From the IMG/VR virus record IMGVR_UViG_3300027917_004307: DNA of 64,000 nucleotides. One strand, 5' to 3'. Below, piece by piece: positions 40,116 through 55,034 of this stretch. Every line of letters begins with the position of its first letter. Position 1 is the stretch's first letter. Origin of the DNA: a virus (Duplodnaviria; Heunggongvirae; Uroviricota; Caudoviricetes). Both the position numbers and the translations under genes were made by a program. A model generated the notes under the pieces. That model was not told the origin of the DNA, did no database searches, and saw nothing but the letters and a program-made list of their open reading frames with translations.

Positions 40116-41666
40116 TTACAAGTTGCTCACTGTGACTACGCCGTAGTAGAGCCCACCATCTTCGATGAGCTTTTTTCCATACCGGGTCATTATGCCCTTG
40201 TTCGGCGTGAAGGAGTTGGGGTCCAACACGGTCGGCGTCGAGAGCAGCGGGATGTACGGCGCGTAGAAGTACCCGGAGTCCAGCACCGAGTTACCCTTGA
40301 AGCCCATCAGGATCTTGCAATTCGGGAAGAGCGGATCCTTGTAAAGTTTCAGCTTCCCTTGAATCGTACCGGCGCTCGTAATCCCGATGTCGATCCCATC
40401 TTGCGCCAGTGCGTCCGATCCACGGAAGTCATTGAGCTGCTCGAACTTCGAGGCAATGTCAGCGCTCGTCACCATCCAGTTGGCCGGTCCCCGTAGGGTG
40501 GTCCTGTGGATGATGTTGGCAACTTCCAGCACCTTGTAGAGCAGCGCGATGTTGCGGTCTGTGAAATTCACCGCAGCACCGGCACCCGTCGCGAAGTTGT
40601 GGTTGGCGCGAATGGCGGCGGCGATGATCAGATCGTTAATGATTTCCCTGTCGATCTCGGCCACCATCTCATCGGCCATAAGGTCCGTGAGGGTGCTCTC
40701 TGCGTCGATGTTGTGCACCGACTTGAGGTCCTGGGCGGCTTCGAGACTCCAGGAGGTCTTGAGCTTGCGGGTGACAGCGGCCACCGAGTCGCTGTCGATG
40801 CTCATCGAGACCTCAGGCTGGAACGGGTTGTTTTCCAGGTCGTACTCGTAATTGACCCTGGCTACTGCTCCTGCGGGGAGCGTGCCACTGGCCAGAGTGA
40901 CCGAGACAGAGCCATCATCGTGATTGAACTCCGTCGCACCGGAGGTGGACTCGTCAATCGTGATGTCGGAAGTGTCACCCACGAGCACAACATCCGGAGC
41001 GCCATCCGAGTCAAACCCGACCTGAAGGATGGGCGTCGGAGTTTCGCAGTCGTCGGCGATGGAGTCTGCTGTAAAGACGTTGACCACCACCGTACCGGCG
41101 AGAACGGGCTTGTGAACCAGGTTCCCCTGGATGGCAGCGCCACCCTGCACGATCGCGAGATCCTCATCCTGGACAATCTGCGAGGTGTAGTAGGGATCCA
41201 AGGCCCAGCCGTTCTGGCGGGCAAACTGCTGGGCAGTATTCTGCCTCATGATCTGTGTACCAGCAATCGTCTGGCCCTTGGAGATGGCGTAACGGTACCT
41301 GATGTAGAAAATCAGGCTGGCTGGCTGACTCATTGGCTGAACACCGACGAGGTTATCAGCGATGAGCCTGGGATAGCTCTTGCGGATGAGCGGCAGGGCA
41401 AAACGGGTGAAGTCAGCGATATCGCCCGTGGTCGTAGCATCCTCAAGCAGGACATTCCTTTTCTTGGGATCCCAGCTGTTCAGCTGGTTTTCCATAATAG
41501 CTGCCATGAGACCATACTTTTTAGGCGTGATCTCAGGGCACTTCTTGAGGACTGGAGACCACTTGGCCACCATCGCATTCTTCTTTGACTCACGAGCGAG
41601 GATTACATCCCGCTCCTCAGTCAAGGTAGCGCCCTTGCCGCTACCCTTTTTCGTCATATGGGGCAT
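40116..41666 (-). CDS. major capsid protein, T4 gp23-like
   Basis: 'WSPVLKKCPEITPKKYGLMAAIMENQ' aligns with T4 gp23 'WKPLLEGEGLPEIANSKQAIIAKIFENQ'. 'RLIADNLVGVQPMSQPASLIFYIRYRY' aligns with 'NLIAFDICGVQPMNSPTGQVFALRAVY'. The C-terminal 'YFYAPYIPL...NSFTP..GIMTRYG' aligns with 'IYYAPYVAL...KNFQPVMGFKTRYG'. Confidence 0.85.
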   Translation of the reverse strand: MPHMTKKGSGKGATLTEERDVILARESKKNAMVAKWSPVLKKCPEITPKKYGLMAAIMENQLNSWDPKKRNVLLEDATTTGDIADFTRFALPLIRKSYPRLIADNLVGVQPMSQPASLIFYIRYRYAISKGQTIAGTQIMRQNTAQQFARQNGWALDPYYTSQIVQDEDLAIVQGGAAIQGNLVHKPVLAGTVVVNVFTADSIADDCETPTPILQVGFDSDGAPDVVLVGDTSDITIDESTSGATEFNHDDGSVSVTLASGTLPAGAVARVNYEYDLENNPFQPEVSMSIDSDSVAAVTRKLKTSWSLEAAQDLKSVHNIDAESTLTDLMADEMVAEIDREIINDLIIAAAIRANHNFATGAGAAVNFTDRNIALLYKVLEVANIIHRTTLRGPANWMVTSADIASKFEQLNDFRGSDALAQDGIDIGITSAGTIQGKLKLYKDPLFPNCKILMGFKGNSVLDSGYFYAPYIPLLSTPTVLDPNSFTPNKGIMTRYGKKLIEDGGLYYGVVTVSNL

Positions 41667-49232: not shown

Positions 49233-51047
49233 TTATCCTGTGAGGTTATCTTCCTCGTCGCCTGAGTGTATTGATTCTAGCAATATTTTCATTTCCTTCT
49301 TAGCTGATTTTCGATCTATAGGATCGATGACGCTATCGACCAATAATGCATCGTCCTTACCCTTCAACCCATCCAATTCATTATTGTTAAGCAAGAATTC
49401 AAAGCTTGATGAATATCTCGTTGGTACGGTAGGAACTTTGTTCTCGCTTTCCTCAATCATCTCCATGAGTGTTTTCTCTGTCTTGGCATCATAACTTTCT
49501 AGAGCGCCACCCATCATTTCTCCACCTTCTCCACCTCCACCACCTCCACCACCTTCTCCACCTTCTCCACCTCCACCACCTTCTCCGCCAAGAAGACCAC
49601 CACCGAGACCGCCACCGAGACCACCACCGAGACCACCGCCTTTACCACCTTCGCCACCCATTTCAAGTCCTTCTTCCATGGCTTTCTTTTTTTCTTCTTG
49701 CATTTGTCTAATTTCGTCTTCAGTCATATCTGTGAATCTCTTCAAGATCCACTCATCAGGAAATAATTCAGTACCCTTTAAAGCATCAATTACGTCTGCC
49801 CTGGAAGCCCAGGTCTCAATCCTATACAACTCGTCAATTGCAGAACTAGCAGTCATGTGCAACGAGAAGTTCTTGAGGTCCTTTTCTGAATAGCCCCTCA
49901 AAGCAAGATGGACGATAGCTGCCTTTTTGAGACCCATAGCTGCTTCACGTTGTACCCATTGCACAGCTTTGGCAAACTCGGGTGACACTTGCGATAACGA
50001 CTTGGTTTCGTTCTCTCCAGATTCGCCAATCCCAACTCTGCTGTACGGAATCTTGAGTCCAGAGATCATTTTCTTCTTGAAGTACTCAATATCTGCTATT
50101 TGATCGAGGTTTTCAGCGCCTGGTAGAGTCTCAACTTTAGGGCCGGTGCCGTCTGATCTCATGGGCAGCCAGAAATCATCTTCTTGTATAAGTGGATTCC
50201 ATCGCTCATTCACATCGCCAGTTGCTGGATCAAAGAATCTCCTTTTCTTGAATGTGTTCGCTATCTTCTCCATGTAACCAGGAATTTCATGAGTCGGAAT
50301 TTGGCCGACAGGAATTGTGAAAACGCGCTTCTCGGGCGCACGGGTCAAACGATAGATAATTGCCGCATCTTCCATCAAGCGAAGCTGCTTGAAGTGTTTC
50401 CTCGCGCCGTTTAACAGTGATCGGCCATATGGATGAAATAAATTCTCATATGAAGTAAGCCTCATATGCATCACTTGCCACGGGTGTAAGAATTCTGGAC
50501 TCCTAACCAATTCATCTTGGTAAAAGAATCCTACAAGATCACCGAATTTAGTCTCAACCCTAGTAAAATTATAAATATTCATGAATCTGATACTTGCAAC
50601 ACCATCCCTATTCTTAGTCGGAATTATCTCAGCAGGGAAATCACCATACTTGACCAAGTACCTGATCATTGGACGCAGGGTATTGTCGATCAATAGAGTA
50701 TCATAAAATAGCTCTTCAAGTTCATTCTTGACTGCTTTGGTCTTGGCCTTTACCATTATTGAGTGTTTTGACTCACTGTCAATTAATGAAGCTTCATCTG
50801 AATATAAATCCAACGCGAGAGACATCTCGCCGACTTCATCCATCTGGTCGTAGTCTTTATACCTCTCTAAGCGATTAATATGAAGATTTGTTTGTTCTAG
50901 AAGTGCATGTTGCGAAGATAGATTTATGAAATCGCCTGAAGCAATTAATTTGTCAATCGACGATTGGTCAGTGAACAGATTGTCGCCACGATAAACATTG
51001 CTTTGCTTGAAATAAGCGGCGATTCTGTCAAATAATTGCCAGCTCAT
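49233..51047 (-). CDS. portal protein, T4 gp20-like, with C-terminal Gly-rich insertion
   Basis: 'AIIYRLTRAPEKRVFTIPVG' aligns with T4 gp20 '[21 protein letters not shown]'. 604 aa versus 524 in T4, the extra length being a (GGE/GGL)n tract. Confidence 0.8.
   Translation of the reverse strand: MSWQLFDRIAAYFKQSNVYRGDNLFTDQSSIDKLIASGDFINLSSQHALLEQTNLHINRLERYKDYDQMDEVGEMSLALDLYSDEASLIDSESKHSIMVKAKTKAVKNELEELFYDTLLIDNTLRPMIRYLVKYGDFPAEIIPTKNRDGVASIRFMNIYNFTRVETKFGDLVGFFYQDELVRSPEFLHPWQVMHMRLTSYENLFHPYGRSLLNGARKHFKQLRLMEDAAIIYRLTRAPEKRVFTIPVGQIPTHEIPGYMEKIANTFKKRRFFDPATGDVNERWNPLIQEDDFWLPMRSDGTGPKVETLPGAENLDQIADIEYFKKKMISGLKIPYSRVGIGESGENETKSLSQVSPEFAKAVQWVQREAAMGLKKAAIVHLALRGYSEKDLKNFSLHMTASSAIDELYRIETWASRADVIDALKGTELFPDEWILKRFTDMTEDEIRQMQEEKKKAMEEGLEMGGEGGKGGGLGGGLGGGLGGGLLGGEGGGGGEGGEGGGGGGGGEGGEMMGGALESYDAKTEKTLMEMIEESENKVPTVPTRYSSSFEFLLNNNELDGLKGKDDALLVDSVIDPIDRKSAKKEMKILLESIHSGDEEDNLTG
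49515..49660. repeat. Gly-codon low-complexity tract (ccacc/tcc repeats) encoding the GGEGGKGGGLGGGLGGG... insertion in the portal
   Basis: Read directly from the sequence. Confidence 0.85.
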
Positions 51048-51116: not shown

Positions 51117-53420
51117 TCATTTAGGTCTCTTAGGAATAGTCAAGTTGTGCTTTTTTGGCCTTACAATCCTAATGTTATTTTTGGTTTTGCCTAGGGTAAT
51201 TCCACCAATTTGTTGCTGAAATTTTCTAATTTCATCCTCAGCCTTTATTTTGCCACTATCCACTTCGCTACTAACATTAAATGGCAACATTATATTTTTA
51301 CTAGCTATAGAATTCAGATCGAATTTGCTAGTCGGATCAGATAATGGAACGTCGAAATTATGATACGGTAATAAATTATGTCCACCTATCCTAACTGCAT
51401 CGCCAACACCAATCAGCGACAATGCTGTAGCGATGACCAAGTCGTCATTGTTACCTGGACCTGGCTCAGCACCAGTCTTGGTCTCGGTCAATTGGACATA
51501 GATCATCGCTTCTTTATATAGTCTCGAAGAGCATACGACATAACCATCTTCACCTAGTCCGTCTATTAAGCATTTATCCAGTAGAGGCTTACTTTGGCCG
51601 GTAGTTGAGAATCCAAGATGCCCGGCTTTAACTTTCAGATCTGCTCTCTTCCTTCTACTCCTATATATGTTCGGGTATGCTAAATCTTCGAATAATTCTT
51701 GGCAGGTGGCTTTGCCGATGCCAGTATTTTCAACTACTGCCAGTGCATTATTATACCACCTGCCAATAAAGTCTATCATCTTCGCAAAGACTTTGGGCCT
51801 GACTTTAATCTTCAGTTCTGCTACTTGTTCGCCCTCATTGATATCAAAAACTTCGATGGCACTGAAATCCTGCCCTTCGCCAGTGGCTACGTCACAACCA
51901 AGCACATACTGGTGCGGCGGTTCACCGGTCTCTTCGTTCCCCTTGTTTGGCTTCTTCCAGACCCACAATTCATCCCTAAAATCAAGGACTTCCCTCTCCT
52001 CAGTCGTAGGATTGACATAATCCTGTAAACCAACCGTCTTATAATTTTTCCCATGAATCGCAACTGTATTCCCAATTATTGATAATGTCTGTCTCGATAA
52101 GACCGTATGGCCAGTACCGACGAATTCAGCAAGAACCTCTTGTCTGAATTTAGAGTCATCACCTTTTTCAGTAAGGTTTCTGTATTCAGTGTCAAGCCAC
52201 GGACTCCAATACGGCCCGAATTTTTCTATCTCATCTGGCGTTTTGCATTCACGAAGACCAGCAGTGGGACATATAGATATCGTATTGCCAGAGAACTCAT
52301 CCTTAAATGGAATCTTCCATGTCATATCCCACCAATTGATCACTATCGGATTGAAGTCATTTTGGTTTGATTCAGCGTCAGTCCAGAATCTCCAATACCA
52401 ATTACCAACACCCTTAACAGTTGAAATAACAATGGCGCGACCACCATGCTGGAGTGTAGGCCAGCCACCACTCCACATATCATCCATATGAGGCATAAAC
52501 GCCGCTTCATCGATGATATTTAACGACGACGCATTCGAGCGCAGAGTATCGGGGCTAGATGTTAAGCTGGTAATCGTAGAGCCGTTAGGAAATCCTATTT
52601 TGTGTTCGTTGCTCATGCCACCAGCTGCTGGATCTATCGACCAAATTTGCTGCATCCACGACGGCAAGTGCCCAAACGCCAACTTAACATTCTTTTTTAA
52701 AAAATCCTTGGCGTCCTTGTCTCGTTTTGACACGATCAGTACAGTTTTGTGACCAAAAAACATCGCATACCAAAGAGCAAAGGCACCGGATAACGTAGAA
52801 ATACCGCAATTATGAACAACAGCTCCATCAACAATGTAGTTATTGTATGGTGGGACTCTTAAATCATAAACTTGGCATTCCAAATTTGTTGGTTTTACTG
52901 ACTTTATTTCAGATTCGGCTATTTCCATACGATCGTTGATTTCGATTATCCTATCGCCTTGGTTTAATGATCCAATATTACGCCATCCACCAGGCGTCTT
53001 AAATTCATGATTGCTGGTAAAAAATGATTTGTGCCCGTTTTTGCTATTAACCTCAACTAAGTCGTCAGAAATCCCATTGTTGTACACATCCTCAACAACA
53101 CTAACGACAACACCATCATTGCTTAGCGAATAAACTTGATCGCCATTTTTTATTGAATCTATCCTTATTGGCCCGCTTGGTGTCCATACTTGAGAGTCAT
53201 CACGTGCGCATTGCCTGCATTTTCTATAAATGTTGAACCGTTTTGTCATGAAGTCTCTGATACTATCGATTTGATAGTCGAATAGGTTAAATGGGATGAT
53301 TCCTGCCCGTGGGTGTTGGATCTTACAGAAAGTTTTTATAAAGAATACCGGGCTTCTCTGGCATTTACGTATTAGTTTTTTTAATTGCTTTGGGTTAACC
53401 ATCGTCATCCATACCGTCAT
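51117..53420 (-). CDS. terminase large subunit (gp17-like) interrupted by a mini-intein in the ATPase P-loop
   Basis: After the intein is removed, 'RKCRQ|CGISTLSGAFALWYAMFFGHKTVLIVSK' aligns with T4 gp17 '[32 protein letters not shown]'. Extein length is about 633 aa. It directly precedes the portal gene. Confidence 0.85.
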   Translation of the reverse strand: MTVWMTMVNPKQLKKLIRKCQRSPVFFIKTFCKIQHPRAGIIPFNLFDYQIDSIRDFMTKRFNIYRKCRQCARDDSQVWTPSGPIRIDSIKNGDQVYSLSNDGVVVSVVEDVYNNGISDDLVEVNSKNGHKSFFTSNHEFKTPGGWRNIGSLNQGDRIIEINDRMEIAESEIKSVKPTNLECQVYDLRVPPYNNYIVDGAVVHNCGISTLSGAFALWYAMFFGHKTVLIVSKRDKDAKDFLKKNVKLAFGHLPSWMQQIWSIDPAAGGMSNEHKIGFPNGSTITSLTSSPDTLRSNASSLNIIDEAAFMPHMDDMWSGGWPTLQHGGRAIVISTVKGVGNWYWRFWTDAESNQNDFNPIVINWWDMTWKIPFKDEFSGNTISICPTAGLRECKTPDEIEKFGPYWSPWLDTEYRNLTEKGDDSKFRQEVLAEFVGTGHTVLSRQTLSIIGNTVAIHGKNYKTVGLQDYVNPTTEEREVLDFRDELWVWKKPNKGNEETGEPPHQYVLGCDVATGEGQDFSAIEVFDINEGEQVAELKIKVRPKVFAKMIDFIGRWYNNALAVVENTGIGKATCQELFEDLAYPNIYRSRRKRADLKVKAGHLGFSTTGQSKPLLDKCLIDGLGEDGYVVCSSRLYKEAMIYVQLTETKTGAEPGPGNNDDLVIATALSLIGVGDAVRIGGHNLLPYHNFDVPLSDPTSKFDLNSIASKNIMLPFNVSSEVDSGKIKAEDEIRKFQQQIGGITLGKTKNNIRIVRPKKHNLTIPKRPK
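52810..53211 (-). mobile_element. mini-intein (Hint domain only, 134 aa) within the large terminase
   Basis: Begins at Cys 'CARDDSQVWTPSGPIRIDSI' (block A). Block B is 'KSFFTSNHEF'. Ends '...QVYDLRVPPYNNYIVDGAVVHN' followed by a +1 Cys. No endonuclease domain. Confidence 0.8.
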
Positions 53421-53955
53421 CGTCCCCGAGAAGTTTAGACAGATCGATATTTGTCACATTTTCCTGCACGATCTGCGTTCCTTTGACGGCAGAAATCATT
53501 CGGCTCATCGAGTCCAGTAGTTTAATAATAGTAGCGTTAGTCTCTGCCTTTGTCCTGTGCGCTGATACTAAGCCTTCGACTATAAACTCCCTAGGTGTCT
53601 TAGAATCAATAAAAATATCTCTGATCCTTTGGATTGTATCTTCTATCGCTTCTCTATCATTATGGTAGTTATTTAATATTGTTTCAGCAATATTATTAAA
53701 TTTCTCATAGACTGCCCTAATATCAACGGCACCGTCCGCTTGCCCCACACCATCAATTACCTCAGCTATAGCTTCCTGGTGCTTTGCTGGTGGTTCTATG
53801 TCATGGTCAGGATCAGGATCAGGATCTATCACTGATTCAGGCTCCTTCTCCGCTTGCTCGAACGGATCTTTAGCCTTATCCAGCAATTCCATAAGCTCTT
53901 CGTCGTTTATCGGCTGATCTGGCTGATCAGATCCTGCCTTCTCTTCTTCAGGCAT
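53395..53955 (-). CDS. putative terminase small subunit (gp16-like), acidic
   Basis: 186 aa immediately upstream of TerL. Loose similarity of 'FIVEGLVSAHRTKAETNATIIKLLDSM' to T4 gp16 '[25 protein letters not shown]'. Confidence 0.4.
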   Translation of the reverse strand: MPEEEKAGSDQPDQPINDEELMELLDKAKDPFEQAEKEPESVIDPDPDPDHDIEPPAKHQEAIAEVIDGVGQADGAVDIRAVYEKFNNIAETILNNYHNDREAIEDTIQRIRDIFIDSKTPREFIVEGLVSAHRTKAETNATIIKLLDSMSRMISAVKGTQIVQENVTNIDLSKLLGDDDGMDDDG

Positions 53956-55034
53956 TCTAAATATTCCGGAATACTAATCGTACTTTCTGACAGAACCGCG
54001 TTTATTCTCTCAGACACTAGTTTGACTGTTGGTGCTATGCTACCCAATTCACTTCTACCAAGCATCGTCTCCAAAATTCTGCTACTTGCATCTAACTGTT
54101 CGTATGACAGGATGTTCAAATCAGTGTCTGGGTCTTGGATGAGAGATACTATTAAATCGGCCCCCTCTTTTATTTTGTCTTCCCTCATGCGATCGGCTTT
54201 TCTCTTTTCATTCGGCCTGTCAGCTTTACGCTCCTTATACCTCTGGTCTTCGTTCGACTTATCCCTCTTTGGCGTAACTTTTGTAGGGTCTGGCATCCTC
54301 ATTGGGACTCTACGTCCTTTGTCCTGATTCTTAGATTTAAGTGATTTCCTAGTTTTCAAAGCGACTTGGTTATCGTGAGATAGAGGGGCAATCCCACGCC
54401 CCTCAACGGTGGTGCTGTCGGTTGTTTTAACAGTATCGATACCATCCTGCTCGACTTCGGCTGGTTCTATCCTAAGTGACCTCAATATCGTATCATCATA
54501 TTCTGCTGTAACATTGAAGACTGATCCACGATACTTGACTGGGGCTATAATGGCTTGATCGGCCAGTTCGTTTTCCAATCCCTCGATAACAGAAGCGTCA
54601 ACGATGGCAATCTTACCAGTTGGAGCAGTAAATTCTTCCTCAAAGTTCTCAGGTTCTTCAGCTATTTCCTCGTCTTCTTTGAGCGGCCACATTGGCTCAT
54701 CATTAGATGCTTCTGGCAGGCCAAATTTGTTGTCGATTAGGGCAGCAGCACGCTTGTGGCATATCGGCACATTTACCTTAATTGTACCAACAGCTTTGTC
54801 GTCATTGATTTTGTCAATGACGACACCACCATCGAGACTGTATCTAAACCACAATTGAGACCCATCTCCAACCCTAACCACCACGAGTGCCTGGCCATGT
54901 GCGTCGGTTTTACTGCTGATTCTGCCGACATCTATTCCATATGCTTTTTTGAGCTGTTTTCTAACACTCTTAGCATATTTTCTCAATGAAACCATTTTGT
55001 CTTCAGTTTCAGCCATCGTATTCGTCCTCTTCAT
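53907..55034 (-). CDS. hypothetical basic/acidic protein
   Basis: 375 aa with a K/R/D/E-rich C-terminal half. Confidence 0.4.
   Translation of the reverse strand: MKRTNTMAETEDKMVSLRKYAKSVRKQLKKAYGIDVGRISSKTDAHGQALVVVRVGDGSQLWFRYSLDGGVVIDKINDDKAVGTIKVNVPICHKRAAALIDNKFGLPEASNDEPMWPLKEDEEIAEEPENFEEEFTAPTGKIAIVDASVIEGLENELADQAIIAPVKYRGSVFNVTAEYDDTILRSLRIEPAEVEQDGIDTVKTTDSTTVEGRGIAPLSHDNQVALKTRKSLKSKNQDKGRRVPMRMPDPTKVTPKRDKSNEDQRYKERKADRPNEKRKADRMREDKIKEGADLIVSLIQDPDTDLNILSYEQLDASSRILETMLGRSELGSIAPTVKLVSERINAVLSESTISIPEYLECLKKRRQDLISQISR

Follow-up and report, generated by a model that had tools for sequence, protein, structure and literature searches.

In mycobacteriophages, inteins are found most often in the terminase: the TerL1-a and TerL1-b inteins lie in the P-loop of the large terminase subunit (TerL), TerL1-a at the classic K/T position (a slash marks an insertion point throughout), and the TerL6-f intein lies in the C-motif. 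Terminase inteins cluster in ATPase motifs, the classic P-loop intein site is GK/T, all five terminase inteins that were tested spliced efficiently, and it has been argued for these terminases that activity depends on splicing (PMC5050341). Here we describe an intein in the P-loop of the TerL encoded by a 64,000-nucleotide stretch of DNA (hereafter the window) from the virus record IMGVR_UViG_3300027917_004307 (Caudoviricetes; an uncultured large phage), which is part of the 261,688-bp metagenomic contig k141_869270 (ENA ERZ27279932). Phage terminase P-loop inteins are already documented and the finding leaves current understanding unchanged; the window provides a new example, at a non-classic position and in a deviant Walker A motif.

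The TerL gene of the window is an open reading frame (ORF) of 767 codons that carries an in-frame insert of 134 residues, and sequence comparison and a structural model together confirm this insert as a mini-intein of canonical class-1 type in the terminase P-loop, consisting of a HINT splicing domain with no homing endonuclease. Around the insert the precursor reads RFNIYRKCRQ/CARDDSQVWTPSGPIRIDS ... YNNYIVDGAVVHN/CGISTLSGAF, the insert itself running from CARDDSQVW to IVDGAVVHN. The original prediction, made from the sequence alone, had called a Hint-only mini-intein of 134 residues with blocks A and B, a terminal His-Asn and a +1 Cys, and the Pfam score, conserved residues, model and fold all agree with that call; the length was correct, while the coordinates (52810..53211) were one base out, the insert occupying 52809..53210. 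The parts of the gene are as follows.

51117..53420, minus strand: large terminase (TerL) precursor ORF, 767 residues
53211..53420, minus strand: N-extein, residues 1–70, ending in FNIYRKCRQ
53211..53222, minus strand: N-terminal half of the P-loop, K67-C68-R69-Q70, with R69-Q70 aligning with R162-Q163 of T4 gp17
52809..53210, minus strand: class-1 mini-intein, precursor residues 71–204, 134 residues, HINT splicing domain only
53208..53210, minus strand: intein Cys1 (TGC), predicted first nucleophile, invariant in 12 alleles
53007..53018, minus strand: intein block B, T65-S-N-H68 (TxxH motif), H68 invariant in 12 alleles
52863..52865, minus strand: intein block F Asp116, in VYDLRV, invariant in 12 alleles
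52809..52814, minus strand: intein block G His133-Asn134 (CAT AAT), predicted site of Asn cyclisation, invariant in 12 alleles
52794..52808, minus strand: C-terminal half of the P-loop, the +1 Cys followed by G-I-S-T, aligning with L164-G165-K166-T167-T168 of T4 gp17
51117..52808, minus strand: C-extein, comprising the remaining ATPase domain and the RNaseH-like nuclease domain, including the stop codon
52506..52523, minus strand: Walker B and catalytic Glu, L-N-I-I-D304-E305, aligning with MIYID-E256 of T4 gp17 (PMC6379665, Table 1)
52419..52424, minus strand: S333-T334 of the VIST segment, aligning with ITTT of T4 gp17 and intact in the window

When searched alone against Pfam, the insert matched Intein_splicing (PF14890) with 45.6 bits (E-value 8.6e-12), above the curated cut-off of 35.8; there were weaker Pfam matches to PT-HINT and Hint_2, and Pfam found no LAGLIDADG, HNH or other endonuclease domain in the 134 residues. 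A PHROGs search with the intein alone returned a weak and uninformative match to a "head protein" (1.6e-4). Among sequences in the PDB the matches were to the NpuDnaB mini-intein (4o1r, 1.4e-8) and the Mtu RecA mini-intein (3ifj, 2.8e-8). An AlphaFold2 model of the intein, built with 11 allelic sequences, was all-beta with a mean predicted local distance difference test (pLDDT) score of 97.1 and a predicted template modeling (pTM) score of 0.89, and a Foldseek search of the PDB with this model placed only mini-inteins at the top of the list, those of Mtu RecA and NpuDnaB matching over the whole chain with template modeling (TM) scores of 0.90–0.92 and root-mean-square deviations of 1.4–1.6 Å. 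These inteins (3ifj, 2in0, 4o1r; 139–142 residues, 26–28% identity) share the HINT fold with the window intein; their solved forms are splicing-domain constructs from the cellular hosts RecA and DnaB, whereas the window host is a terminase. To our knowledge 134 residues is about the smallest size of natural contiguous inteins, comparable to the Mth RIR1 mini-intein, and a compact intein with both Cys1 and Cys+1 could be a candidate for protein engineering. The 12 inteins at the same site are only 24–60% identical to the window copy, and nonetheless C1, H68, D116, H133 and N134 are invariant across them, T65 is nearly so (≥90%), and 11 of them are followed by Cys and one by Ser at +1; the roles of these catalytic residues and the class-1 mechanism have been reviewed (PMC10663303).

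Without the intein the protein is 633 residues long and its junction is RKCRQCGIST, just as had been predicted, and a search with this spliced sequence identified 443 homologs at E-values of 1e-10 or less. Intein-free homologs with identities ranging from 86% (P0002) to ~48% aligned without gaps across the junction (...YRKCRQCGISTL...); they read YRKCRQ-CGISTL there, P0002 and ~100 others having KxRQ[CSA]G.ST. At the DNA level the intein-free allele of L002 reads AGAAAGTGTCGTCAG/TGTGGGATTTCC, the site in P0002 being AGAAAGTGTCGTCAG/TGTGGGATTTCCACA, and the window has the same flanking codons around an insert of 402 bp, which is in frame and has codon-precise junctions. The agreement with gapless intein-free homologs, together with the recurrence of the insert at this codon elsewhere, is far beyond chance. 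The G+C content of the intein is lower than that of the extein (38.3% vs 42.4%), a weak hint of foreign origin.

By its sequence matches the host protein is a T4-type large terminase (Terminase_6, gp17-like). The spliced protein scored 27.0 bits against Terminase_6N (cut-off 22), with a match that spans the junction from profile position 4, and its match to phrog_2 (terminase large subunit) had an E-value of 1.2e-42. The precursor scored only 20.3 bits against Terminase_6N with a match that begins after the intein, which is below the cut-off, and in an uncorrected annotation the P-loop would look to be missing. Alignments of 14 and of 42 sequences had no gap at the junction in intein-free homologs, and a profile of the 42-sequence family matched T4 gp17 with E-values of 1.7e-45 (3cpe), 2.4e-32 (2o0h) and 3.1e-47 (gp17 fragment 3ezk) in alignments that span both the ATPase domain, including Walker B with its Glu and the ITTT segment, and the nuclease domain. 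The proposal that the flanking sequence aligns with gp17 is borne out by this profile, which runs continuously across the junction, pairing f-k-k-t-R-Q-s-G-I-S-T with C-N-L-S-R162-Q163-L164-G165-K166-T167-T168. The insertion is thus between the residues that match Q163 and L164 (KCRQ/CGIST vs LSRQ-LGKTT in T4), and both the homolog and the gp17 alignments place it, as predicted, within the P-loop between Q and C. While a P-loop insertion is typical of inteins in general, as the original prediction held, the position is not the classic one, the Q/C site of the window being two residues upstream of GK/T. D304, E305, S333 and T334 are invariant in the 14-way alignment; the VIST/ITTT segment we take to be the ATPase coupling C-motif.

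The P-loop that is interrupted is itself unusual. In a survey of the 120 best homologs, the 104 with an uninterrupted loop all had K-x-R-Q-[CSA]-G-[IAVLM]-S-[TK] and none had GK[ST]; the 42 aligned sequences all have K67, R69, Q70, G72 and S74 (numbered as in the extein), and the position of the canonical Lys (T4 K166) is Ile in the window and hydrophobic across the family, in line with the earlier statement that this is not the T4 GKT form. The deviant form (K-[SA]-R-Q-M-G-I-S-T) also occurs in the nearest of the deposited phages, Microcystis phage Mel-JY01 and LR756508 (uncultured, 484 kb); in the T4-like cyanophage S-SSM6b the loop is canonical, R-Q-S-G-K-S. A deviant Walker A motif has been described for lambda gpA, K76-S-A-R79-V-G81-Y-S83 (PMC6379665, Table 1, citing Mitchell & Rao 2004). 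Lambda gpA and the window family share the pattern K-x4-G-x-[ST], in which the Gly is not followed by Lys (G-Y-S vs G-I-S) and the loop contains an Arg, and the spacing from K76 to G81 equals that from K67 to G72 in the window (Lys five before Gly). They differ in that the Arg is at G-3 in the window, as is T4 R162, and at G-2 in lambda gpA, and the overall homology of the window TerL is to T4 gp17, not to lambda gpA. By analogy with the proposal made for lambda gpA K76, the invariant K67 probably supplies the phosphate-binding amine. Of the claim that the Lys is displaced as in lambda gpA, the invariant Lys and the shared spacing stand and make it plausible, while direct homology to gpA falls below threshold. 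The hhalign match is too weak to demonstrate homology to lambda gpA, and we keep the comparison as a resemblance of patterns. With its K-x-R-Q-x-G-[hydrophobic]-S-T loop in a protein that is otherwise T4-like, the family bridges the Walker A types of T4 and lambda, and it could be used to test the "displaced lysine" idea.

The closest described systems share part of this arrangement. TerL1-a and TerL1-b (Kelley et al. 2016, mBio, PMC5050341) are, like the window intein, inside the Walker A P-loop of TerL, and like the window's family they have mini and endonuclease-bearing forms and would need splicing to form the ATPase site. However, their hosts are of the Terminase_1 family with the canonical GK[ST], whereas the window has a Terminase_6 protein with a deviant loop; TerL1-a is at K/T, the window intein at Q/C with a +1 Cys that aligns to T4 L164; and we detected no close sequence relationship between TerL1-a or TerL1-b and the window intein. 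TerL6-f (Chandler gp6; PMC5050341), like the window intein, is in the ATPase domain of a Terminase_6-type TerL, but is inserted in the C-motif rather than the P-loop, and some relatives of the window TerL have inteins at or near the C-motif. In a cultured phage, the T4-type TerL of Vibrio phage VPALA (PV171464.1, L023; Terminase_6N 72.6 bits) has, on our own reading, an apparent and unannotated P-loop insert of ~173 residues (residues 126–298, ARQSGK/CVDHD...GILSHN/TTVVAAF), which is at the classic GK/T site of a canonical loop, unlike the window intein at Q/C in a deviant loop. Pfam called no intein in the VPALA insert at E<0.01, and by tblastn it is unrelated to the window intein at the sequence level.

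Eleven further database proteins have this insert at the same codon, as do 11 IMG/VR contigs, these relatives having been recovered by the extein search and by a pattern scan of IMG/VR; as one of these contigs (L008) is that of a database protein (P0007), at least 21 other metagenomic contigs carry the allele. Twenty-three intein-bearing proteins were among the top 120 homologs, 12 of them with the intein at the RQ/C site. Those in database proteins are either mini-inteins of 134–156 residues or are 333–337 residues long with a LAGLIDADG domain, and the 11 IMG/VR contigs, some of them 341–356 kb, similarly include four mini-inteins (135–145 residues), six full-length inteins (331–337 residues) and one that was not sized. 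An intein-only search of an index of 5.8 billion proteins found nothing, with only four word-sharing candidates, and when 50,697 deposited phages were searched by tblastn with the intein no terminase allele appeared, the only matches being ~30%-identical helicase inteins of Vibrio phages and PaV-LD. In this search no deposited phage has the window allele, the VPALA insert is at a different site, and the allele is so far known from metagenomes only.

Based on these alleles we can suggest a history for the window intein. Its closest relative is the endonuclease-bearing intein of P0005 (60% identity in the splicing domain, 72% in the exteins), which between blocks B and F has ~200 extra residues with a LAGLIDADG_3 domain where the window has the short loop NDRMEIAESE, while inspection of the alignment shows the mini-intein of P0039 to be visibly closest to another full-length form, that of P0032. 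The mini-inteins differ in their deletion boundaries, and those of P0069 and P0081 keep endonuclease remnants. This pattern fits a homing cycle, based on the varied boundaries, the remnants and the fact that mini-inteins are closest to different full-length forms, and from the sequences we infer repeated independent loss of the endonuclease after invasion by an endonuclease-bearing intein. The window intein would accordingly have descended from a LAGLIDADG-bearing homing intein that targeted the same codon, and with its endonuclease lost would now be inherited vertically; it would persist since losing it imprecisely would inactivate an essential gene. A dN/dS comparison (nonsynonymous to synonymous substitution rates) between intein alleles was dropped, as synonymous sites are saturated at 53–60% amino acid identity. 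The terminase family has at least five intein sites including RQ/C, the further sites (in P0027, P0036, P0102, P0105, P0111 and others) being WP/TLQHGG, HGG/C, IVVS/C...HQ/T and IST/C...HN/CNG, of which IVVS/C and IST/C are at or beside the segment matching the T4 gp17 C-motif; the inserts at these four or more further sites are ~430–460 residues long. The clade is therefore a natural homing series, with intein-free, endonuclease-bearing and independently miniaturized alleles at one codon, and, with four or more additional intein sites elsewhere in the ATPase, it makes a good data set for the homing cycle of phage inteins.

Taken together, we consider it very probable that the window encodes a class-1 mini-intein in the Walker A motif of a T4-type TerL which is spliced out to give an active terminase. 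The gene would be translated as a precursor of 767 (or 761) residues, its ATP-binding loop split between KCRQ and CGIST. An N-S acyl shift at Cys1, aided by Thr65 and His68 of block B and Asp116 of block F, would be followed by attack of the +1 Cys on the resulting thioester (trans-thioesterification); Asn134 would then cyclize with the help of His133, freeing the intein, and an S-N shift would restore a normal peptide bond to give the 633-residue terminase with the loop K-C-R-Q-C-G-I-S-T. The precursor should be unable to form the P-loop, and ATP binding, motor assembly and DNA packaging would be carried out by the spliced protein only. A local hidden Markov model (HMM) scan of all six-frame ORFs found this to be the only terminase gene within the window, and for this reason, and because the catalytic residues are intact, we expect splicing to be efficient.

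Several points weigh against this account. The splicing mechanism is argued from conserved residues and from precedent, and the order of events, loss rather than gain of the endonuclease, from the remnants and the homing-cycle model rather than from a rooted tree. The count of one terminase is for the window, which is part of a 261,688-bp contig, and another terminase gene that is free of inteins might lie elsewhere in the genome. K67 is a putative structural counterpart of the canonical Lys. The Pfam GpA_ATPase model gave the spliced protein a sub-threshold 17.7 bits (cut-off 25.6), and a comparison of the family profile with lambda gpA by hhalign gave a probability of 2.7% and an E-value of 0.017; its alignment pairs R69 with lambda R79, rather than K67 with K76, by way of a one-residue gap within the loop.

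The best surviving alternative, though one we think improbable, is that the intein is a redox-gated conditional switch, in which, under oxidizing conditions, a disulfide within C68-R-Q-C71 (a CxxC formed by the Cys at -3 and Cys1) would block the first splicing step and delay maturation of the terminase. The Cys at -3, Cys1 and Cys+1 are all present in the window sequence, and trapping by a disulfide between an N-extein Cys and Cys1 is known from the Pyrococcus abyssi MoaA intein and from an engineered "redox trap" in DnaE (PMC10663303); PDB entry 3nzm is among the Foldseek fold matches of the window intein. After splicing the CxxC would become Cys-x-x-Cys(+1) in the P-loop, and there is a slight chance that maturation or activity of the terminase is redox-sensitive, with packaging timed to the state of the infected cell, in which case the intein would be a conditional switch and not a purely selfish passenger. 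However, a Cys at -3 is no more frequent in intein-bearing alleles (5/12) than in intein-free ones (~43/104), and at this position Thr or Val is found in seven of the intein-bearing alleles, so the CxxC pair is not required for the intein. It is very unlikely that the insert is instead a decayed, splicing-dead HINT remnant or a cleavage domain like those of bacterial-intein-like proteins, with the terminase either a pseudogene or functional with the insert in place. While the absent endonuclease domain does represent some decay, no catalytic residue has been lost and the set is conserved in 12 divergent alleles, the reading frame is uninterrupted, and the exteins show clear signs of constraint; the insert breaks the P-loop, making ATP binding by an unspliced protein implausible, the window has no other terminase gene, and tested terminase inteins splice efficiently (PMC5050341). 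Finally, the window is from a single metagenome assembly contig, but an assembly or chimera artifact is scarcely credible given in-frame, codon-precise junctions and insertion at the same codon, with diverged sequences, in independent assemblies (ENA, JGI, Logan and IMG/VR).

For annotation, the spliced mini-intein reading means that TerL of this clade should be called as a 767-residue, intein-containing precursor that matures to 633 residues. The likely true start, judging from the sequence, is Met7 at 53402, which is favored because it agrees with the N-termini of homologs and with a database gene call (P0001, 761 residues, 100% identical to the window TerL), and because its ATG overlaps the stop of the upstream ORF (ATGGTTAA). 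This upstream ORF (53395..53955, minus strand) encodes an acidic protein of 186 residues and overlaps the start of the TerL ORF (53395..53420); it had no family match in Pfam or PHROGs and is possibly the small terminase.

The neighborhood is conserved between the window and its relatives, with a helicase, an intein-bearing gene (677 codons in the window), two small genes, TerL and a T4-type portal in order, followed in relatives by a large protein and then a Peptidase_S77 prohead protease. The window portal (49233..51047, minus strand) matched Portal_T4 with an E-value of 1.9e-73; past the portal domain it carries an extended Gly-rich stretch (GGEGGKGGGLGGGL...GGGGGGGGEGG). A major head protein (phrog_138) is encoded at 40116..41666. 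The 677-residue neighbor (55009..57042, minus strand) contains a LAGLIDADG intein of 419 residues (residues 122–540, 55423..56679) with the junctions FNMW/CVAPDT...VTHN/SQVAKT, and its syntenic homologs in relatives, of 685 and 1075 residues, are intein-bearing too. The host of this second intein had been named as gp55, an identity that we could not verify, the spliced 258-residue extein matching nothing in Pfam, PHROGs or the PDB sequences. A related intein was also found in another host in two IMG/VR contigs (L020 and L021, matches starting at 2501 and 116), where it follows ...LLEDAMLIYKL/C; this host is taken to be the portal because the site matches the motif RLMEDAAIIYRL/T of the window portal. 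A Pfam scan of ten large ORFs and the six-frame HMM scan identified exactly two inteins in the window, and the suggestion of an intein-rich lineage is borne out in part, mostly outside the window, by the relatives with their five or more terminase sites and intein-bearing syntenic neighbor; the lineage is fairly prone to inteins.

Elsewhere in the window, an 844-residue ORF (19364..21898, minus strand) scored 93.9 bits against the shoulder domain of the major vault protein (PF11978) and 35.7 bits against Vault_3, domains that are unusual on a phage contig, and had no PHROG match. A class II (B12-dependent) ribonucleotide reductase of 1110 residues (59814..63146, minus strand) had its barrel domain matched in two stretches, and the Pfam scan detected no intein domain in it. 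Among the relatives, a 53%-identical terminase (P0050) on a 170-kb contig has the NCBI label "MAG: terminase family protein [Nitrososphaerales archaeon]", which may reflect either a mis-binned virus or a hint as to the host range of the clade, and several other relatives are on contigs of 311–385 kb.

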